Below the pieces are notes generated by a model, which was given only the letters and a program-made list of their open reading frames with translations, had not been told where the DNA came from and searched no databases. A DNA stretch of 54,927 nucleotides, the filler included, from Sluysia triapertura (taxonomy: Eukaryota), in NCBI GenBank assembly GCA_046118255.1. It is 4 parts of 4 records of this genome, joined end to end, with 100 filler letters (N's around TTAATTAATTAA, not from the genome) between each part and the next. Parts side by side here need not be neighbours in the genome. Positions count along the whole stretch, not along the records: positions 17,018 to 30,208 come from JBJNIA010053774.1; 3 more parts are not named here. One strand, given 5' to 3'. A program made the translations under genes and the position numbers. Positions 4,332-34,920 of the stretch are shown in pieces. Each line of letters starts with the position of its first letter. Within the stretch, counting starts at the first letter, position 1.

Positions 4332-4410
<79 letters not shown>
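4332..4410. repeat. (AAT)n microsatellite, tail of the adjacent LINE fragment
   Basis: Perfect AAT run directly abutting the 3' end of the LINE fragment at 4411-4755. Confidence 0.95.
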
Positions 4411-4755
4411 TGTTGCTCTAATATCTACTGCAAGCTAAGTAATCATTACAATATTTCTAACATAGAAAAAACTTTGTATTTTTCTTAAATATTTCATAAT
4501 CGTCCAATAAAGTAACATTTTTATAGGATTATTGTACATTTTTGAAACATAAACACTAAGTAACCTATCATCTAGCTTATTATCACGGTTGATTCGTAAA
4601 AAATTATTATACTTTAATAACATATTCATTTTAGTTTCCGAAGTTTTTGTTATTTCCAATAAATATTCACTTATAAATTATTGTCCCGATTTTAAATTTT
4701 ACTCTTGCTTTTATTTGGTAATCAATGTACTTCTTTAAGATAATATAAACGCGCT
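4411..4755 (-). mobile_element. CR1/L2-type LINE 3' fragment (5'-truncated, decayed)
   Basis: Clearly homologous to 34491-34920 and 25700-26264. It encodes a decayed YLKEVH.LP.KAR.K.K...IIYK...DDR...VYVSKMYN C-terminal LINE motif followed by an (ATT)n tail. Confidence 0.7.
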
Positions 4756-13757: not shown

Positions 13758-14410
13758 TTAAACCGACAATAATAACTTTGACAGTTACGTGGTACGATCT
13801 GTCTGTGGTGGCCCAGCATACACCTACCTATATATCACATCAATCATAATATTCATCTACACAAACTTCATGGCAAAAATTACATTATAACAAGTCTCAT
13901 GTGTATCATTTACAACATTACAATTGTATATTTTTGAAAGTCGTATAATTTAAATGTGCGATGCTGAAGAAATTTTTAATAGTTAAGAAATGGTTTTATT
14001 AATTAGAGTAAGTTATTCAATATAAATGGATTGTTAGCAATAGCTCTAGCGTCAATCATAAAAACAATAACCCATATATGTGGAATTACCGAGAATCCTC
14101 TAACAATCGGTAAGCTGTTTGATATGCACGAAAAGTGCAGTTTCCAGAAGGTTAATGCCAATAATCCAAAAGAAGAATTATCATATTTGTAATAGATTTT
14201 TTATATTTAATGTCTCGATCTTTCTTATATTTGTGAAATATTAACAAATTAAAGATATTTATACTTATAAACCTTTTTATATTGAATATTATCATCTAAA
14301 TGAGTCTGTGAATTCCACTTGTGTCGTAAAGAGAAACGCTACATATAAGTTCGTTTTTGTCCACATTGATAAAGTAACTTACCAATATAAATCAGGAGAG
14401 TTAATTCTAC

Positions 14411-14968
14411 ATGACAAGGAAGATGGATAATTCGACTTTGATATTTACCTATCGAGTAAAAAATTTACAGAGTAATCGAGACGAAATTTTGCATTGTCCT
14501 TTCTCGAGTTGGAAATTGAATATCAACAATAATTTTGAAATAACTATTTCTAATATAAAATTGAAATTAACCCTGCACCTCATACCAAGTAATAATGTTC
14601 CTGCTCTAAAGAGGGTTTCAGATTACGTAGTTTGTGGAGTTTATCGATTGCATAACATTGTTTACTTAAGTCTCGTAACTAATTTTCTAACCAACACCCA
14701 AGTCAAACAGGAACATTACTTGCTTGGTATCGGAGGTGAGTTTGTAGACTTACGAGTCCATGGTGTTATTTTTTATTCAATTTTTAATTTGAATTTTAAT
14801 CTAATTTTGAAATTAACATGCGATTTAAATTCTGATATGTTTGTTTTGCTTGTTGATGTTGAATGCACGATGCATCGTTGTTACAATAATCATACTTGGA
14901 TGATGTATTTCCACAACCCGGTCATCGAACTAAACTTCTTATTCTCATGTTTTGCCCTGAAGACGTAA
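14411..14968 (+). CDS. Orphan intronless ORF (185 aa), probably part of a longer disrupted reading frame at about 14300-15311
   Basis: Long open frame with non-repetitive composition in very AT-rich DNA. It is continued by overlapping ORFs 14896-15135 and 15114-15311, which suggests frameshifts. No family recognised. Confidence 0.4.
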   Translation: MTRKMDNSTLIFTYRVKNLQSNRDEILHCPFSSWKLNINNNFEITISNIKLKLTLHLIPSNNVPALKRVSDYVVCGVYRLHNIVYLSLVTNFLTNTQVKQEHYLLGIGGEFVDLRVHGVIFYSIFNLNFNLILKLTCDLNSDMFVLLVDVECTMHRCYNNHTWMMYFHNPVIELNFLFSCFALKT

Positions 14969-16699
14969 ATTTTTATTACGAATTTAACAATTCAGATGAT
15001 TTCAAATTGAAAAGGTTGGGCATAATTAATAGTTGCAACACAAACGTACGTATTCGTCGAGGCCGGTATAAAGTTTTAAATAATTTTAAAATTAATTACA
15101 GTTACATTATTGTTTGTCTTCTATATATTTTTTGATCCTGTCTAAACCTGATAACATAACTTATATTGTTCAAAACTTTGGAAAGAGTGCATGCTGTGGA
15201 CTGATATTCGATAAACCCATGATTTATAACGAATGTCAGTCTTATATCATTATGGTTGTTAATTTTTTTAGTGTCAACAATTTTTGTCAATTTCATTTTA
15301 TTTGTATATAATAAAAATTTTTTATGTTACTTTTATTCAAAAGCTTTTCTTCATAAAGGAACTTTTGAGTGGCTTAAGCACCGATATTGTCATAACTGTA
15401 GACTTTACGTAATAAAACTCCTAGTAATAATATGAGTAACAAAAGTGATAGCAATAATTTTAATTCCTTAAATGAAAAAAATCTACAATACTGTCAAACT
15501 TTATTAGGTACAAAACATAGAAACTTGATTTATTATCAACCATCTATTTTTACTTAAATTACTTCTCATATTAAAATAACAATCAACAATATTGATAACA
15601 TACATAAAAATAATGAATTTAATTTCACTTTTTAAAATTTAATTGAATTTTCGATCTTTCATACCCAATTTTCTAATGACATATGTTTTAAGGTTCTTAT
15701 ACTCAAACGAACCATTCCACAACTATTTCGAACTCATAACAATCATCCCATATTCCATTCATTACATTTGCATCACTCTAAGTATTAAAAATTCAACTAA
15801 AATTTTTAATTAATTAAAATTAATTAAAATTTGACTTTTATCGATATTAAAGCTTTCCTTGCGTGAACTCGATCCTCCATATTTTCATCGAAAGGTCTTT
15901 TCAAAACAAATACATACACAACTTCAAATTTAACATAGCATTCTCATTCAAAAGTTATTCACAAAACGTACTTTTTCTTAATTAAGTTAATTAATATTTT
16001 AATTAATTAATCTATTTTTAGACTTAATCTTATTCTATGTTTAAAGGTTTTATTAAGGTCCTAAAGTTATAAGGTACTCAAGAGGAGCTAGATGTTTTCA
16101 CCTTCACCTCCCTTCACCTACTTCTTTATGTTAATTATTTCATAGTAGATTTATCTTTAATAACAATGATTTTATTTCTCAGATGTTTTAAAGATTTTGA
16201 ACACTTTTTAAGATTACTAAATGATCTCAAATGATTATCGATGTTCCAAGAATACTTAAATGTTACTAAGGTCTTAAACGATCTAAATGTTCACTAGTTC
16301 AAAAGTATTTTAATGCTTTGAAAGGTTTTCAAAGTCAATCTCAAGCTTCCATAAAGTCTCAAACAATTTTATAGGTCTTTGTAATTCCAGGTATACTTTA
16401 ACTCTTAACATTATTATATATGTTTTCACTTGCATGATTCTTATTCCAACAATTTTCATCATGTTCAATCCATCACTTTGCATCAATTTTCCTTCATTTT
16501 ATAATTATATATTTCTCACTCATTTCCTGATCTCAGTTTGTTAATCCCAACAATTATAACAATGTCACTGTGCATAGATAAATATTTAAGTTCCTCAGGA
16601 TATTGTAATATTTTTGTATTATTTCTTAAGCATCAATTCTTTTAAGGCTGTATTAATTACCAATTAAATAGTAGAAGAAATCAAAGCACAAAATCAAAA

Positions 16700-17017: not shown

Positions 17018-17736
17018 TATACTATATATGTATATTATATAGTATATAATGAAACACCTACGAACAACTATTATTCCAAAATGAGACATGCTTTATATTA
17101 TAAAGCATTGATTTCCCAATTAGAAATTTATTGTAAATATTTCAGAATTTTATTTCAAAAAAAACTCAAGAAGGATAATGAAAATTCATGATTTTAAGAC
17201 AAAATCAGGTGCACCTAATTCAAAAACCGGTGCAGAAAATTTATCTGGTACAATGAAATTTTATATGATTAATTTATAATCGACTTCTATATTTTATAAA
17301 CGATTTTAATTTACCAGATTATATTAAAAAATCTTTAGTAAAAATTTAATTTAATTTTAATAATTATAATATAATATAATACAATAATATATTAATCTAT
17401 ATTGCGTTCATATGAACTGTATTGAAATAATATTACATTATTATATGGATTTTTAGTTAAAAGTCTAATGTTATTAAATGTAGCAAATACATTTACTAAC
17501 AAATTTCGAATCAATTTAATGGTTTAATACAAATTTAGCTTAAATCTTTGGGATTGTGGTTGTATTTAATATTGTTTTTATTAGTATTTTGACTTTTAGA
17601 ATTAATGTTTGAATTTTGACTCGTTATTATTAATATTTGAGTTTCAAAACTGTTACAATTTAGATTAACAATCAATTTATGATTAAATTCAATTATGAAT
17701 ATTCCCAACATTTTTGTACAAAAACTTGTAGCGAAA

Positions 17737-18390
17737 TCAACTAAGACAAAATTTTTTATTTAGAATTAGTAGACACCAATAATTAAATTTAATTTTTTTT
17801 GTTCTGAATGTGCCATGAAATAGAGTCGATGCTAAAAACAAATTATAGTTATGATTCAAATTAATTAAATAATAGTAAATTGTTACTGTAATCTCGTGTC
17901 CTTTAAGGTTATTAACATAGATACGACTAAATTTGACATAAAATGTATTACTTCTGATGTTAGATTCGTAACCATTATGAAACCCAATTTTGTGAGTATT
18001 ATCTTTAATATCATTTATATTGATAGAAGAAATGTTGATGATGAATTTACGTTTGAAGCTGCAACTTCCGCATTTCGTGACGATATAATAATCAAACGTA
18101 GTACTAAATTCATAATTTTGAGCATTGGTGCAGTTGTATTTGTAATTTTGTGCATACTTACCCGGCGATAATTTTTCAATTCTAAGATTATGCGCTACTT
18201 GTTTAGTTTTTACCATTTGATCATCGGTTTGCGTTAGATTATCATATAATTTCAGGACTTCTATACGCCGAGGATGGAAAACATCAACAAAAGAATGATC
18301 ATTTGTCGTAAGAGTATTTTGGTTATAACTATCTTTATAATCTTTGATTATACAATTACTAAAAACATGAATGTTGGAGAAATATTCCAT
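17737..18390 (-). CDS. Orphan intronless ORF (217 aa)
   Basis: ATG-initiated, uninterrupted 654-nt frame with complex composition, starting 21 nt after the stop of the upstream ORF. No family recognised. Confidence 0.5.
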   Translation of the reverse strand: MEYFSNIHVFSNCIIKDYKDSYNQNTLTTNDHSFVDVFHPRRIEVLKLYDNLTQTDDQMVKTKQVAHNLRIEKLSPGKYAQNYKYNCTNAQNYEFSTTFDYYIVTKCGSCSFKRKFIINISSININDIKDNTHKIGFHNGYESNIRSNTFYVKFSRIYVNNLKGHEITVTIYYYLINLNHNYNLFLASTLFHGTFRTKKIKFNYWCLLILNKKFCLS

Positions 18391-18411
18391 AACTCTACAC
18401 TGCTTCCAAAA

Positions 18412-18762
18412 TCAATTTTGTAACAGCTGTACTATTTCCTTGTAACTTCGTAAATCTCTTGTAGTTTCTAGCGATTTCAATGGTCGAGCTTCAATTTGAG
18501 CAATGTGCCTCTGCAAGGAAATGGGTCGATAAGCCTCGTCTTCAATTGTAATAAGTATGTTGTCATTTTCGATCTTAAGCCAAATTTTATCAACACTCGG
18601 TGGCAACGGATCAAAAACTAAGTTGACTTCTTGATGTAATAAAAGTCGAAACAAGAGGAATAATTGGCAAACTTCGTTTTTGTTTAGGTATACCATAATA
18701 GAATCGACATTTAAATCTATCAACGCTTCCTTGATCATCGTTACTTCTCTGGCTGAATCCAT
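18412..18762 (-). CDS. Orphan intronless ORF (about 116 aa from the first ATG, MDSAREV...)
   Basis: Open frame with globular-looking sequence. The ORF track starts it at TTG 18783, but the first ATG is at 18762. It is tandem with 17737-18390. Confidence 0.45.
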   Translation of the reverse strand: MDSAREVTMIKEALIDLNVDSIMVYLNKNEVCQLFLLFRLLLHQEVNLVFDPLPPSVDKIWLKIENDNILITIEDEAYRPISLQRHIAQIEARPLKSLETTRDLRSYKEIVQLLQN

Positions 18763-18899
18763 ACATCTAATTTTTTCATTCAAATCTGTTGTTCTCTATT
18801 AAAATCGTTTGGTAACTGTTTTTAAGTTTTTTCTCAAGTATTGTTATTGCATAATTATGATAGTGCACTTATTTTATTTTTATACACAAACTTTTGCAT

Positions 18900-19100
18900 C
18901 ACGATTGGTTGTCCAACCAAAATCGTTTGAAAATGAATAAAATAACTGATTTGGTTGGGCAGACAGTAAGGTTTGTTCGTCAAATATTGAAAGTCAATGA
19001 TCGCTGTCAACTGTGGTGAGAACCATCATCAACAACGACATGAATTTATATTTGTGCAACAAAATGTCGCCGTTGATGATGGCAGTAATCAAGTTGATTA
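18900..19100. promoter_or_regulatory. CCAAT-box-like plus 19-bp-stem hairpin module, copy 1 (function unknown)
   Basis: GATTGGTTGTCCAACCA...TGATTTGGTTGG followed by arms CCATCATCAACAACGACAT (19023-19041) and ATGTCGCCGTTGATGATGG (19064-19082). Homologous to 32120-32320. Confidence 0.45.
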
Positions 19101-19199
19101 AGAACTGCTTTATTGGAATTTTATTTTAATTAATTTGTGTTAAAAATAATGATAATAATAATAATCTCAGAGTGTTATTATTATTATTAATGAAGAAAT

Positions 19200-19690
19200 T
19201 TACATAAAGTCTTTATTTCTTTAAAAATAAATTAACAAGATCTTTTCTGTCTTAATTCTTTTCTTGTTCTGACATATGCCAATAAGATGAAATAAAATTG
19301 CTGATATTGTATGACAGAGCAACAATAACAGGATATACTATGCTTGAGTTATCGTTGCTGCTTCGTTTTATAACATTGAATTCTTTAAAGATGTATTAGA
19401 TTTGTTTTGAATTTTTGAAAAGTTTTATCATGTTGAAATAGATTAAAATGTATTTGAGACTAAATTGTTGGGTGAGAATTGTTTTGAAAAAAATGATAGA
19501 TATGTTTGACCTTTGAAGGCTTAATAATTGATATAAGTCTTGAGTGAATTAGAGTGTGTTAGAATATGTTCTTCAATGTTAAATGAAGTTTTTATGTGTG
19601 AAAACAAGTTTTATGTATTGAAATATAATGGATAAAGGTTTATTGAGAAGATTGTGATTTAAAAAAATGCTTAGCAACTCTTTGCGTAGC
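19200..19690 (-). mobile_element. Possible decayed LINE 3' end (CCHC-like region)
   Basis: LCHTISAILFHLIGICQNK near 19265-19325 resembles the LINE C-terminal CxxC-x7/8-H-x4-C. AAT/ATT tracts lie next to it at about 19145-19190. Confidence 0.3.
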
Positions 19691-20369
19691 TACGGTGCTG
19701 TTGCACAATGTTAATGACGATTATGTGTAGATGAATAGTAAGTTTGAAATGTTGTAATTGATTTAAGGTGTGAATTAGGTATCTTATACTTTTCAAATAG
19801 GTTTACTAGTGTTGTGGAATGGTATTAAATGTATTTGTGATTTATATGTTGTAAGTTTATGATTGTGATTTGATTTGAGCGAATGAACTATTAAATGAAT
19901 GTTATCGATTGTGAGATATTAATTGCCAAAATGTAGTGTAAAATGAAGGGTTTGAAAGTATTAGATGGATTATTTCGAATGAACTTGTTGTTGGATTATT
20001 GTGAATGTCGAGTTATGTTTTTTTGTGTGAATTAGTTAATGTAAATTGATAGTGTTAAATATGATTGTGATTTGGATGTTGTGGAATTTTAATAAATTTT
20101 TAGTGGTTATGAGGGTTGGCCACTACAGAAGGAAAATAATTTATTAGATTCTTCAAATTATCCGAAAAATTATGTTTCTTAGAGCAGTCAATAGGAAACC
20201 AAAATCCAATTGTCAAAAGATAAAAATAATCGACAAATGAAAAGATAGACTTTAATGTTTCAATCTAAATTATATTGACGAAAAATCCAAACAGGCCTTA
20301 CAAAAAATGTATCAAAAATAAATCATTTCAAATGATCTATTTCAAAAAGGGATTTTCTGTGAGATTTAA

Positions 20370-20579
20370 TCCTTCCGGGACGGGCTTTCTAAAGAGAAAT
20401 TTTTCAATAAAGTATTTAATTTAAGTGTGATACTTTTTAAAACAAGGATTTATGCACAATCCAACATTTACTCACTACGGAAATTTTGTATCTTTTCTTC
20501 TGAATGAAATGTATATATAAAGTGTTTTTTATTTAGAATTATAAGACAAAAAATGAAACTGTGTCACCATCCCAAAATG
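20370..20579. mobile_element. piggyBac-type MITE, copy A
   Basis: TTAA|TCCTTCCGGGACG ... CATCCCAAAATGG|TTAA. The interior is the reverse-complement homologue of 22161-22450. Confidence 0.55.
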
Positions 20580-22814: not shown

Positions 22815-24017
22815 CAGTAAACTCCCAGTTATCCGGGATAATGATGGGGAGGGCCGGTACGGATAATTCTCAAAATAATAATATATAATAACTAAAAATA
22901 TACTAGTATAATACAAAAACAATGAAAATACATTCAATGCTTTATTCAAAAATCGGTAATTTTGGTGTGTTTAAGCGAATTTATCAATGACTTTTTAATA
23001 TCATCTGGAATTTTTCTTAAAGATATTACATCGTTATAGTCGAAGCTCCACTGATCGACATATTCTAATAAAGTATCAACAGAAGTCAATTCCGCGTCGT
23101 GACTACTACGATTGGTAATATTTTCTACCTCACTTTCAGTCTCACTTTTATTTTCATTTGGATTTGAAATTAGATTTGAAATAATATCAGTGTCACTCTG
23201 TATCTGGAATCCTGAATCAGATGAATCAAATTCCATCCATTTCTTAATATTTGGTCATCAACATTTTAAATTTAAATTTTTCTTTAGTTCACATAATTCT
23301 GAAGTGTTACATATCTCAGGTTCGATAGAGTCCGAAGCATTACTTTGTACATATGATCGAACTGGTTTTGTTATAAGATTTAGCAGCTTCATATATTGCA
23401 TCCAACACTGTCATTTTTTCCATAAATTCATTAAATCGTCATTTTAAGGACATCATTGTGATAATGTAGTTTCATTAAAGAGATAACTCCTTGATCCATA
23501 AGTTGAATTAAAGATATTACATTAGGTGGTAAAAATTTTGCAGCTATAAAGCCGTCGTCTGTTTTCAGTATGCCTTCATTTGGATGACAAGGATCATTAT
23601 CTAATAACAGTTGCAATCCTTTTGAGGTACCCTCTCTGGAACTCCCCTTTTTGTACATACATCATGAACACTCAAAGACTGGTTTGAGAATTTATTTATG
23701 TAGGTGTACAATGCTTTGTCCTATTCTTAATTTATTTGATATTGGTTGACATATTCATTGGGTAAAAATTTTACAAAAAAATATTTCAATAAATTCTTCG
23801 AAGACGTCAGTGTTGGTGGGGCAAACACATTTACTTTTAATAAACTCGAATTTCTGGGACCCATTTATTTTTAAATGAATGTTCAAAGATCCTTCTGTCC
23901 ATCCATGTTCTTTTTTGATTGTAGTAGTCAACAGGAAGATTCTTTATTTCTGTTCCTTTTTGAATTTTCTAAATATTATCCACGGATAATTGCCCATGGA
24001 TAATCGGGAGTTTACAG
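22815..24017 (-). mobile_element. pogo/Tigger-family DNA transposon, internally deleted, transposase pseudogene
   Basis: TA|CAGTAAACTCCCAGTTATCC ... GGATAATCGGGAGTTTACAG|TA: 20-bp TIR with 3 mismatches and TA TSD. DDE_1 motifs LPVDYYNQKRTWMDRRIF (about 23885-23945) and [11 protein letters not shown]...[18 protein letters not shown] (23431-23658), plus an acidic C-terminal region (22946-23236). Confidence 0.9.
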
Positions 24018-25699: not shown

Positions 25700-26264
25700 C
25701 AAACGAAACCAAATTAAGTGTTAGTGAATAAGATTCTGGAAGAAAATGAAAAATCAAAAAATGAACATGGAAGAAAATATTAATTGTATTGTTAAAAGGC
25801 TTAAATAACAAATGTTCGAAAATTTATTAATAAAGAAATAGCTAAACTGATTGTTTATTCATTGATAACTAAAAACACAGATTTTAACAATGGTACAATG
25901 TGTTCCATTCTATATAGAAAAATGCAACCAGCAAGAATAATATAGAATTATATTGTTACCAATGAAAACAAGAATAGAATTCAAAAGCATGACAATAATG
26001 GAAGTTCTGAATATTTCTTGGAAATAATAAAAATTTCGGTATCCAAATTGAATAATAATCTGTAGAGTGATAATTATGTGCTAAATGATAGGTTATATAT
26101 AGTTTATGTTTCAAAAAAATACAAGCAGCTACCAGAGAATGTTAAATTACTGAACGATTATGGAATATTTAAGAAAAATGAAAAGTTTTTTCTATTTCAG
26201 AAATATTTCAGTACTTATTTTATAATAGATATTAGCGTTATATAAATTAATTTATTATTATTAT
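25700..26264 (+). mobile_element. CR1/L2-type LINE 3' fragment with short (ATT)n tail
   Basis: KMNMEENINCIVK..., LPMKTRIEFKSMTI..., LPENVKLLNDYGIFKK..K.FLFQKY. Homologous to the other copies in the window. Confidence 0.7.
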
Positions 26265-26529
26265 TAAGACATATGCTCCATTAAGGCTAAATTTTGTTTA
26301 ATATAGCTGGTAATATAAATATTGTCTAAATAGATCAATGCATAGTAGGCAAAATTAAGATAATAAGGTGGTATTATTTTCATCATTGTATAAAAATGTA
26401 ATAGAACCAAATGACGATTCGTTGGTAGCTGCATAATAAGTAAATTAAGATGTTTTGATGTAGTGTGATTTGCCAAGGATATCAAAATATCAAGTAATCT
26501 TTTTAATTGTTTTGAATTTTTTAATTGAT

Positions 26530-28330: not shown

Positions 28331-29658
28331 ATAGAAATAATATATTTATTAATAAATTATAAGCTCATTGTTCTGCATATTTAGATAAATACGGTTTAGA
28401 TAAATACGGATTTAATAACACTGAGAATGAAAAATAATTTAGTGCGGCTAATTAAAGAAAAGTTGATGATGCTATAGAATATTGTTGAAATTCCCATTTT
28501 AAATAAATAAAAAATAATAATGGAAAAATTATAGAAAATTATTTTACAACGTAAAACGTTAAACTTCTTCAAATAATGAGATAGAAATTAGAAATTAGAA
28601 ATTAAACATGAAAACAGAAGATGAGAATTCATTACATTTCAGTTGCAATCAAAAACATTTACGGATTATACGCCAACACATGAAACAACAATTATTCATT
28701 AAAGGATAAATATCAACAGAAATAGACAAATAACAAGGTGGATATAATTGAATAGTATTATAATGTTACTACTACTACTACTACTCCTACTTCTACTATT
28801 TCTACTACTATTATATCATAGAAATAAATTGTATGTTGTACGATGAAAACTTGATAATTATTGGCTTTAAGTTGTTTATAACTAAGAAATGCAATATAAG
28901 GAAATATAATATACTATATTAATTATATTAATTCCTCTAATTCCTATAATATTAAGAATTCCTATAACAATTTAAAGAATTTTATAGTGAATAAAGAATG
29001 ATTATTAATACTGAAATTAAATAAGTGAATATAATTAAATATTGAAATAATTTGAAAATTATTTTTATCAACAATCAAACACATTTAATGTTTTTTTAGA
29101 CATTCTTACAATATTCATTTGCATTTTATTACATCAAAATTTATAAAATAAAATATGTAATATTTTTTATTCTATAAATTTTGATGTAACAAAATGCAAC
29201 TGAATATTAATATAAACATTACCAAAGTTACTGAAATATAACTTTTTTTCATGACTCTTCAACTTCATCAACCTATTGAAATTTTTCAGAAATCTTTATA
29301 TCAAATTAAAGATAATAAGAAAAGCTTTCATTTGATATCGAAATATGTTGCATTAATTAGAACGATAAACTTTTTGCTCGAAAGAAAAGGCCACAAAATT
29401 GGTATTCTCAATAAAAGAAATTTTGAGAGGAAGACCACCTTCTGAAAATAATTTTAGGTCGAGTGGTAGACATTTTCCATCATTCATTCTTGTACCTGGC
29501 CTTACTAAAACCCCTCAAAATGTTGGAATTGTAATAGATACATGTGTAATGATTGCCTGACTTTTCATCATTTGAAAAAAATACTTATAATAAAATGAAT
29601 AAAAATTGCATTTCTGACACTTTTTGATATCCTGCAAAAAATTGATTTTAGAAATGGC

Positions 29659-30208: not shown

Positions 30209-30308
30209 NNNNNNNNNNNNNNNNNNNNNNNNNNNNNNNNNNNNNNNNNNNNTTAATTAATTAANNNNNNNNNNNNNNNNNNNNNNNNNNNNNNNNNNNN
30301 NNNNNNNN
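30209..30308. other. Artificial assembly linker
   Basis: 44N-TTAATTAATTAA-44N. Confidence 0.95.
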
Positions 30309-30443: not shown

Positions 30444-31950
30444 TTAAAAATTGAAACGATCTCTAACTTCTTGTTTAATAAAAAATAAACAAAATTCACA
30501 TAAAAATTTATTTATTATAATTTTAATTTTTATGTATAGGCTCCTGCGTGTGATCCTGGCGCATTTCCACGTTTCACTATCTGAATAACAATAAAAAATT
30601 ATAATATTATCAATGTAAATACAAAAATTGTTTAGTTCTTGATTGTCCATAATTAAAGTATTGGTTGCCGAATTCATTGTCGATGAACAGAGACTCCTGA
30701 GTAGTTATGCTATTCTAGAAGAATGATAATCATAGTTTGTATCGCTTTCCTTGATAGACCCCAATTTGTAAACTGTATGAGCATAATAGCAGCCAAATGC
30801 ACTCTTTACTCTTTGTCATTACCGAATGGGCAAAAAGCATTCTTGTTGAATTGATTTGAATAGGATCTGCTTAAATGACTTGCATACTTTATTGGTTGTT
30901 TCTTAACATATTCTTTAAATTTTAAAATATCATAGTGCTGTGAAGTCATTTGCCGAGCATTTGCGCAGCTTGCTCATGCTTGTTGTATGATAATATCGTT
31001 CCTTTCAATGGTAATGCTAGGTAAAACTAGGAATTGTATATTTTGAGCGAAATCATCATCATTGTTAACTTCATAGTCATCATCAAAATCATCATCACCA
31101 TCGTTAATTATGATAGGTTCGATATATTTTAACGCATTCATTGCAATATTCGCTTGTGGTTTCTCTAAACATCGATCATCATTGATAAACAAATGTGACT
31201 CCACTAAATTTTCGTTTCCGTAAATTTCGATCATATTGTGTTGTGTATCAACATAATTTCGTGATAAAATTTTTAATTTTAAACTGATAACTTATTAAAT
31301 TGTAGTCTGTCTCATTTCTAGAAATTACGTCAGATTGTCGTTTACAATGTATAAAATTATTTATACGCATAGTATTGACATGGTGGTCATTTTTTATTGC
31401 TTTTACGAGGAACCAATATTTCACCTTTTTATTAATATGTTCTCTCCTGCAATCAATCCATTGACTAAGAGGCATATATTCTAGAAGATTATCAAATTTG
31501 CGTTAGAATGTTTCGATGTAATTTATTTCTTAAACAAAGAGCCAAATTAAATAAACATATTGCTAATGTTATTTCCAGGTAGAATTATGATAGAATTATG
31601 GTAACATTGGATCTTCATGAATAGCATTAAATTTTTCATTAATAGTATTATTTTCATTATCGTTTTCTAGTCGCTCATTTGGACAAAACATTATCAATTT
31701 AATTTTTCACTCGTACATTTTTCCAGTTATATCCATTAACATATAAACAGTTTCTTCGAAAACCTTAATACATACTAAAAGCATATGTTGTTTAATTTGT
31801 ACATCAATATTATTAATAGGAGTATAATGAAATAACTTCTTTAATCGTTGAAATTCTTCTATTGCTTTTAAATCATCTTGAGGTGTATATTTAGTTAATC
31901 CTCTCTTATAGATTACTATTTTCATATTAACCAAAGACATTTGTATCCAT
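30444..31950 (-). pseudogene. Long disrupted intronless orphan reading frame
   Basis: A chain of same-strand ORFs (31707-31940, 31248-31475, 30974-31234, 30444-30677) separated by stops and frameshifts, with ATG GAT ACA at 31950. It includes an acidic tract and a weak makorin-like C-terminal resemblance. Confidence 0.45.
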
Positions 31951-32119: not shown

Positions 32120-32320
32120 ACTTGATTGGCTGTTCAACCAGAGGTATTGAAATGATAAAAACAGTAATGCTAGCTCTGATTGGATGGCCAATGGAAACAC
32201 GTAAAAGACAATAGAAATCATAGACGATTAAATTATATATGATGACAACCACCATCATCAACAGTGACGTTAAACTATAAATGTAAATCAAAATGTCACT
32301 GGTGATGATGACTACTCAGT
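32120..32320. promoter_or_regulatory. CCAAT-box-like plus 19-bp-stem hairpin module, copy 2 (function unknown)
   Basis: GATTGGCTGTTCAACCA...TGATTGGATGGCCAAT, then arms CATCATCAACAGTGACGTT (32253-32271) and AATGTCACTGGTGATGATG (32292-32310). Homologous to 18900-19100. Confidence 0.45.
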
Positions 32321-32429
32321 TAATTGTTTATGCGATTAATAAAATGGAAATAATAATAAATAATAATGAAAAATAAAATGATGATAGTAATAATAACAAC
32401 AAGAATGTTATTATTATTACTATTATTAA

Positions 32430-32644
32430 CACTAGATTTACCAGGAATTTTCCATACCTATTTATACCTATTTTTTAATATTATTTAATTAATAAAAAAA
32501 TAAAAACACTTGCGAAATTAGTGCATTTAGTTTTGTGTGGTAAAAGTCAAATAATGGTTTTTAAAATAAATATACAAATTTATATAGAAATTTAAGTAAT
32601 TTTTAATCAAACCAGTCATTTTGACTGGTTTGGTAAATCTAGTG
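32430..32644. mobile_element. piggyBac-type MITE
   Basis: TTAA|CACTAGATTTACCA ... TGGTAAATCTAGTG|TTAA: perfect 14-bp TIR and TTAA TSD, with the subterminal palindrome ACCAGTCATTTTGACTGGT. Confidence 0.88.
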
Positions 32645-34427: not shown

Positions 34428-34474
<47 letters not shown>

Positions 34475-34920
34475 TAATAATAATAATAATATAATTTATA
34501 TTGCGCTCATATCTACTACAAAATAAGTACTCAAAAACGTTTAAATTAATCATTCACTATAATATTTCTGAAACAGAAAGAACTTTGCTATTTTCTTAAA
34601 TATTTCATAATCTTCCAATATTTTGACATTCTCTGGTGGCTAGTCGTACATTTTGAAACATAAACAGTATAGAACTTATCACCTAACTTACTATAACTGT
34701 AGATTCTGTATAGATTATTATGTCTCAATGAAATATTCATCTTGGTTTGAATATTTCTAAGAAATATTCAGGACTTCCGTAATGTAAGAATTTGTAAATT
34801 ATTGTCATGATTTTGAATTCTATTCTTGCTTTTATTGACAACCAATGTAATTCCTTAAGACAATGTGTTATGCTTATACAAAATTCATAAAAGCTTAAAT
34901 ATAAAGATGAAGAACAACAT
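34428..34920 (-). mobile_element. CR1/L2-type LINE 3' fragment with (ATT)n tail (34428-34490)
   Basis: ITHCLKELHWLSIKARIEFKIMTIIYKFLHYGSPEYFLEIFKP...PENVKILEDYEIFKKIAKFFLFQKYY*, the classic L..LHWLP...RI.FK......YK.L....P.Y LINE C-terminus. Confidence 0.8.

Follow-up and report, generated by a model that had tools for sequence, protein, structure and literature searches.

Two diverged copies of a module that combines CCAAT boxes with inverted repeats stand ahead of two unrelated reading frames in the genome of Sluysia triapertura. This raises the question of whether the module is the head of a gene-carrying mobile element, a promoter copied together with its gene, or a structure that acts as RNA. 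The window (the whole stretch of DNA analysed, 54,927 nucleotides) consists of several contigs joined by N spacers and comes from an AT-rich animal genome with 25% G+C. Host exons encoding RGS, immunoglobulin and fibronectin-3 domains are present. There is also a decayed DDE_1 transposase fragment of the pogo/Tigger type on the minus strand (22949-23661, E 2e-9).

Anatomy of the module

A window-wide search for the pattern that the copies had been said to share, GATTGGYTGTYCAACCA, found it at 18903 and 32124, and at no further site in the window with up to two mismatches allowed; as the pattern was derived from the copies themselves, its shuffle figure is post hoc. Three unbiased tests agree with this result. 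When the window was compared with itself by blastn, 19022-19189 paired with 32251-32422 at 70% identity (E 6.4e-8). Comparison of the module copies by nhmmer gave E-values of 2e-6 and 2.5e-8, and their local alignment scored 53, whereas 952 window pieces used as a null averaged 19.6 and never exceeded 38. A profile built from both modules detected no third copy in the window. As originally described, the copies lie on different assembly segments: an N-TTAATTAATTAA-N spacer (30209-30308) separates their contigs. The copies are homologous beyond chance, and the homologous block is larger than first described. Each is a block of about 300 bases with three inverted repeats, named IR-C, IR-B and IR-A, in equal order and spacing:

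18904-18967, no strand: IR-C of copy 1, units of about 18 bp (18904-18921 and 18950-18967), 14 of 18 pairs Watson-Crick
19023-19082, no strand: IR-B of copy 1, arms of 19 bp and a loop of 22 nt, the hairpin of the original prediction
19149-19193, no strand: IR-A of copy 1, an (AAT)n/(ATT)n turn-round hairpin
32125-32192, no strand: IR-C of copy 2, an inverted pair with three CCAAT/ATTGG boxes, 14 of 18 pairs Watson-Crick
32253-32310, no strand: IR-B of copy 2, arms of 19 bp and a loop of 20 nt
32381-32426, no strand: IR-A of copy 2, an AAT/ATT hairpin in which a G:C pair replaces an A:T pair of copy 1
18879-18884, minus strand: putative TATA-like box, copy 1 only, 20 bp downstream of the CCAAT box

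Counted from the first ATTGG, IR-C lies at 0, IR-B at 119-178 and IR-A at about 265 bp in copy 1; the corresponding offsets in copy 2 are 0, 127-186 and about 278 bp, so that they differ by at most 13 bp. The arms of the inverted repeats are 79% identical between the copies. The IR-B arms have the predicted length and position (19023-19041/19064-19082 and 32253-32271/32292-32310), and their loops have indeed diverged: like the two spacers and the leader ahead of the ATG, the IR-B loop is no more similar between the copies than random window DNA, and 38-92% of null pieces reach the scores of these segments. Hairpins that contain G and C, with arms of at least 16 bases and at most two mismatches, occur three times in the 55-kb window, namely as both IR-B repeats and once within a MITE-like insertion. 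IR-A has arms of 13-21 bp and a loop of 4-11 nt and lies at the edge of the shared block; its outer edge is the limit of similarity between the copies. A fourth, weaker inverted repeat with 13 of 16 pairs and a TGACA core resembling that of IR-B was seen at 19261-19325, and copy 2 has no counterpart of it.

In each copy a canonical CCAAT box points toward the reading frame from 142 and 182 bp upstream of the ATG; in copy 1 the box lies on the minus strand in the ORF-proximal unit of IR-C. A second CCAAT box had also been described. There is a box-like sequence at that place, but it is the opposite arm of the inverted repeat and reads CCAAAT in copy 1. The CCAAT and TATA-like boxes of copy 1 are followed by AATAAA; at the corresponding place copy 2 has neither a TATA match nor an AATAAA. 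The IR-B hairpin, expected 260-300 bp upstream of an ATG GAT, was measured at 261 bp in copy 1 and 303 bp in copy 2. In the available text of PMC11802806, the typical position of CCAAT is -60 to -100 relative to the start site. Since CCAAT normally lies 60-100 bp before the start site, the hairpins would fall outside the mRNA, and the ORF-proximal CCAAT box (with the TATA-like box in copy 1) would start a transcript tens of bases before the ATG.

Two unrelated cargoes and a family of cassettes

The segments downstream of the two modules, which we call cassettes, contain the following features:

17737-18762, minus strand: ORF1, 341 codons, intronless, one in-frame TGA (codon 117)
17480-17736, minus strand: 3' tail of cassette 1, where depth drops toward single-copy at about 17480-17600
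30710-31943, minus strand: ORF2, a fragmented frame (pieces of 78, 84 and 105 aa, among others) containing stops and frame changes

The ATG GAT at 18762 (minus strand) had been predicted to open an intronless ORF. It does open a frame of 341 codons, a length not expected by chance (p ~8e-13), but the TGA at codon 117 interrupts it. The equivalent prediction failed for cassette 2: the ATG GAT at 31950 yields only 7 codons (MDTNVFG-stop), and a longer frame of 78 aa begins at 31943 before stops and frame changes set in. ORF2 is a decayed pseudogene, older than ORF1 and unrelated to it; the lack of similarity between the two frames, already noted in the original prediction, was borne out by a best tblastx E-value of 0.63.

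ORF1 had no homologue in a set of 5.8 billion sequences, among 1.84 billion representatives, in Pfam or among PDB sequences, and nothing was found for it in PHROGs (best E 0.039), viral contigs or metagenome contigs. For the ORF2 frames, Pfam, PHROGs and other sequence searches returned no significant homologue; one piece matched Pox_A32 weakly (E 0.012, below the curated cut-off). Three resemblances seen by eye, an F-box-like start of ORF1, a kinase-like N-terminus of ORF2 and a frameshifted Makorin-type CCCH remnant at its end (30760-30900, minus strand), found no support from any tool. Fold searches with single-sequence models of poor quality (pLDDT 35 and 51) gave no match at E<=0.001. No host parent gene was found for either cargo, so any "capture" would be hypothetical. 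In a codon-position test trained on three host exons, which proved weak, all six cassette pieces exceeded the null mean in frame and two of the six exceeded the 95th percentile; one antisense frame scored alike. A third intronless orphan frame (185 aa and further pieces), MATH-BTB-like by eye, lies at 14405-15330 on the plus strand, with no Pfam match and no module copy upstream.

These searches bear on the earlier suggestion of an endogenous virus, here put as segments of an endogenised multipartite DNA virus that share a common region. Multipartite ssDNA viruses carry one frame per unit behind a common stem-loop and promoter. The layout of the cassettes is similar, and the weak Pox_A32 match points the same way. 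However, the module pattern had no match in metagenome and viral contigs, ORF1 matched nothing viral in the sets named above, the low-confidence model found no viral fold, no Rep or capsid match was obtained, and the loops lack the nonanucleotide of CRESS-type origins. We therefore regard this suggestion as unsupported and extremely improbable.

One public run (X1), possibly the window's own sample, contains the stretch; no RNA run is among the holders listed, which carries no information on expression. We placed 1,859 X1 contigs on 17400-20400, and 1,476 of them were less than 95% alike to the window (96 at 99% or more, 287 at 95-99%, 703 at 90-95% and 773 below 90%). The number of distinct contigs per site was 14 at 18059, 24 at 19020 and 64 at 19984. 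With so many distinct contigs per site, cassette 1 must be a family of diverged copies. Summed depth, which is not equivalent to copy number, was 28 at 17400-17500, averaged 601 over 17602-18813, came to about 1,100 across the module, rose to 3,700-27,800 in 19319-20126 and fell to 18 beyond. A window-identical contig extends into the right flank at a depth of 18.4. Cassette 1 thus has single-copy DNA on either side within 2.7 kb. The family probably comprises tens of copies of the frame and of the module, and far more of the upstream repeat.

The depth of the module is no more than about two times the ORF1 value and reaches the level of ORF1's highest bin, so these depths do not show the module travelling apart from ORF1. 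Because the depth data do not show free exchange, the case for exchange of cargo rests on copy 2.

Do the family members encode a protein? Each of the six contigs that cross the internal stop of ORF1 has another codon there than the window, which makes the stop appear private to the window copy. Five listed in-frame contig pieces had 95 differences and no gaps, against 44 differences and 4 gaps in two upstream pieces; this contrast (Fisher p 0.012) is weak, as it comes from 8 of 1,869 pieces, which overlap. The sole in-frame indel listed, among 12 of 32 indel rows, comprises 9 bases. Among the joints listed for ORF1, two, each on a single contig, jump 107 and 78 bases, so some copies are rearranged. 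Among 40 of 299 rows of differences, 16 fall in ORF1; leaving out the stop, the other 15 are 4 synonymous and 11 non-synonymous, and 3.7 synonymous differences are expected under neutrality. From the private stop, the gap-free pieces and these neutral counts we conclude that the frame seems open across the family and that the window copy has drifted neutrally.

The sequence could instead be the promoter of a fast-evolving, lineage-specific gene family, its inverted repeats being paired sites for NF-Y and a dimeric factor; it would have spread by ordinary duplication and would not move by itself. In such a promoter, motifs and spacing would be kept while spacers turn over, as they do here, and a canonical CCAAT box faces both frames. 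The seemingly open frame of the ORF1 family and the fact that element ends were not found fit this explanation as well, and new coding sequence, for instance retrocopies, could land behind a duplicated block. On the other hand, the single-copy flanks within 2.7 kb argue against a long duplication here, the window copy of ORF1 has drifted neutrally and cassette 2 is a pseudogene. Arms of 19 bp and an AAT/ATT turn-round also exceed the usual length of factor sites. We regard the gene-family promoter as unlikely, though it is the main alternative.

RNA fold or DNA signal

The original prediction offered a pre-miRNA-sized RNA hairpin as an alternative, and cited a compensatory change in the stem (C:G versus T:A) and two mismatches that become G-U pairs on the minus strand. 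The compensatory change is present, but a single change is weak evidence, and the overall count is small: among 54 homologous pairs, 3 changed on both sides with pairing kept, one per repeat and all by transitions. Chance would produce 0.7-2.2 such pairs (P 0.04-0.38 for the 3 found), and covariation between the copies is not clearly above chance. The two minus-strand G-U pairs exist in copy 1, but copy 2 does not share the pattern; the mismatches of its IR-B are one plus-strand G-U and one A-G.

Wobble pairs in the module copies total 10 for the plus strand and 5 for the minus strand. IR-B leans to the minus strand in copy 1 and to the plus strand in copy 2, and IR-C leans to the plus strand in both. 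The tally shows no preference for the minus strand and thereby leaves the RNA hairpin without support. Folding z-scores (plus/minus) were -4.9/-6.4 for copy 1 and -3.1/-2.4 for copy 2, and Rfam had no match at either module locus down to E 5. In an arm of IR-C, both listed contig differences from the window restore pairing; as these improve the pairing, the arms in the family are likely more perfect than those of the window copy.

A structured RNA could still take the form of a pre-miRNA-like hairpin or of a row of folds in a transcript leading away from the gene. The negative z-scores, the one compensatory change per repeat and the 10:5 excess of plus-strand wobbles favour it. They are countered by the empty Rfam search, by copy 1 folding better on the minus strand and copy 2 on the plus strand, by an unconserved loop, and by wobbles on both strands and covariation within chance, as random decay would leave them. 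An RNA function thus appears very improbable. The simplest reading is that the inverted repeats matter as DNA and then decayed at random. They might act through folding of a single-stranded intermediate or by offering paired sites to proteins. An AT-rich, near-perfect hairpin of 100 bp elsewhere in the window (29110-29209), with an Rfam MIR8675 match far below the gathering score, is likely a foldback or MITE relic.

Flanks, ends and known mobile elements

Two repeats adjoin the module copies on the side away from the reading frames:

19218-20127, minus strand: C-rich, G-poor repeat (0.9-kb arm) of far higher copy number, with a sharp TGTAGTGG start at 20127
32430-32644, no strand: MITE-like insertion of 215 bp with perfect 14-bp TIRs starting CACTAG and TTAA on both sides

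The 0.9-kb arm has 20-24% C and 1-9% G on its minus strand and is absent beside copy 2. X1 contigs break at the AAT hairpin, between arm and module, and the arm is either the long arm of the cassette 1 element or an independent neighbour. Decayed Penelope-like coding, suspected by eye for 19300-20100, was not supported, as Pfam and PDB searches were empty. The MITE-like element occurs once in the window, contains an internal hairpin (32608-32632) and adjoins the outer edge of IR-A in copy 2; its TTAA flanks correspond to a piggyBac-type target. The module is not itself the TIR of a short MITE, the reading that had been named as fatal to the original prediction: its arms lie internally, and the MITE next to copy 2 is an element of its own.

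Several other repeats were noticed in the window. A dispersed repeat of about 350-430 bp and about 70% identity occurs at 4338-4744, 25941-26266 and 34428-34864 and adjoins (AAT)n runs in two of the three cases. Self-comparison also revealed three small repeat families (20379-20558/22235-22439; 16826-16901/25633-25811/54707-54927; 46387-46523/47365-47479/53163-53376).

In cassette 1, the far end and the module end have no 12-mer with at least 3 G/C in common at up to one mismatch; this test would miss a repeat of the AAT type. Nor did the last 40 bp of the arm (20089-20128) match anything at the far end. TGTAG occurs at 17479 and, inverted, at 20127, and no target duplication was found at these candidate ends. 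The 3' tails of the two cassettes are unrelated; both contain CTAA/CTAG words, and neither has a GC-rich hairpin with arms of at least 16 bases. Near the approximate far ends, the longest inverted repeats listed (5 of 7 and 4 of 4) are all AT-rich. The cassette 1 tail has no poly(A), and cassette 2 enters an ATT stretch at its contig end. By nhmmer, neither arm nor module recurs downstream of the two cargoes, no inverted copy of arm or module exists in the window, and no Rep/helicase or transposase in the window could be attributed to a cassette.

The sharp TGT start at 20127 on the cargo strand, followed in copy 1 by CCAAT, the TATA-like box and AATAAA, would suit the promoter end (U3-like) of a long LTR that includes the 0.9-kb arm, its cargo acquired by template switching during reverse transcription. 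Both cargoes are intronless. LTR-mediated retrocopies are documented in animals, and the available text on them describes intronless cargo behind a repeat-borne promoter, as here (PMC5131818). In planarians, giant Gypsy elements with accessory ORFs are reported in the available part of PMC6431247. Yet the cassettes have no flanking 3' LTR, that is, no second arm or module downstream of either cargo, and no gag/pol or other retroelement coding trace, and copy 2 lacks the arm, the TATA match and the AATAAA. This makes an LTR distinctly improbable.

The two TGTAG words could alternatively mark a cut-and-paste element of the foldback or Pack-TIR type, with the module as the inner part of a long TIR whose other arm was lost. 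PMC8277862 describes multicopy Pack-TIRs in animals, whose ends are quickly lost; in Ssk-FB4 a DNA element has amplified its cargo into several dispersed copies, which cassette 1 resembles. However, the match is just 5 bp, its flanks lack a target duplication, the window contains no inverted arm or module, and for the cassette neither terminal inverted repeats nor a parent gene were found. This reading is accordingly very unlikely.

Whatever the mechanism, we consider it probable that these are dispersed, mobile-type cassettes. The original claim of a mobile-element end supplying a promoter is supported by the many copies of cassette 1, its single-copy flanks, the CCAAT boxes facing the frames and the unrelated cargoes; mobility itself goes beyond these data. 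More specifically, we tentatively propose, with somewhat more doubt than confidence, that the module is the head of a non-autonomous, gene-carrying DNA element with a CCAAT-driven passenger, its most likely mover being a rolling-circle (Helentron/HINE-like) enzyme. We favour this mechanism for two reasons: the traits of Helentrons/HINEs include short inverted repeats grouped at an end, a microsatellite, gene capture and insertion without target duplication, and Helitrons are known to spread promoters. An enzyme provided in trans would use the three-repeat head as a signal, through recognition or folding, and the head's NF-Y-type promoter would drive whichever frame comes next. Cargo might be swapped through template switching or read-through past an end, and copies would decay after insertion.

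DINE-1/HINE elements combine a microsatellite with a short inverted repeat near the 5' terminus and lack a clear target duplication, and Helentrons capture gene fragments (PMC4067079). The cassettes resemble DINE-1/HINE in the short inverted repeat at what would be one end, the microsatellite, the lack of a detected target duplication and the absence of an enzyme of their own. The microsatellite, (AAT)n/(ATT)n in both copies, is weak evidence, being common in the genome. In contrast to DINE-1/HINE, the cassettes have three hairpins at one end, paired CCAAT boxes and a whole cargo frame of about 340 codons, and no subterminal repeat pair or 3' stem-loop was found at the far end. HINEs carry 12-15-bp subterminal inverted repeats at both ends, of which cassette 1 has none with at least 3 G/C. 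Their short inverted repeat lies 3-22 bp from the 5' subterminal repeat; here IR-A lies at the edge of the shared block. HINEs also insert at TT and have an autonomous Rep/helicase partner with the same ends. The cassettes would work most like a HINE or a promoter-carrying Helitron, but since neither the diagnostic ends nor a partner could be detected, we assigned them to neither group.

Canonical Helitrons begin with 5' TC and end with 3' CTRR, with a palindrome of 16-20 nt about 11 bp upstream. Bat Helitrons multiplied promoters that they had captured and linked them to retrocopies, and the account of HelibatN3 and HelibatN211/N424 describes a repeat-amplified promoter joined to different intronless sequences (PMC4224331), which our cassettes resemble. 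Unlike in the bat elements, TC...CTRR ends with a subterminal palindrome are not demonstrated here, and ORF1 has no homologue.

The cassette, then, is multicopy, apparently undescribed and made of known kinds of parts. Searches of the open literature, which leave out most subscription papers, listed no account of a cassette like this in flatworms or other invertebrates. The window adds a read-based case of an orphan cargo in many copies with an apparently open frame, a three-repeat anatomy and a count of pairs that gives no support to one-strand RNA. The furthest-reaching interpretation is doubtful: these might be undescribed mobile expression cassettes, with a three-hairpin head acting both as handle for a mobilising enzyme and as NF-Y promoter, and with swappable whole frames, some of them orphan genes in tens of copies, that serve this genome as a standing factory of new genes. 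Should the module prove to be no more than a promoter that was copied, or the end of an ancient transposon, it would be a modest, lineage-specific curiosity. If the head does move with exchangeable frames, it would offer new coding sequence a ready promoter and multiplication, and thereby a direct route to orphan genes.
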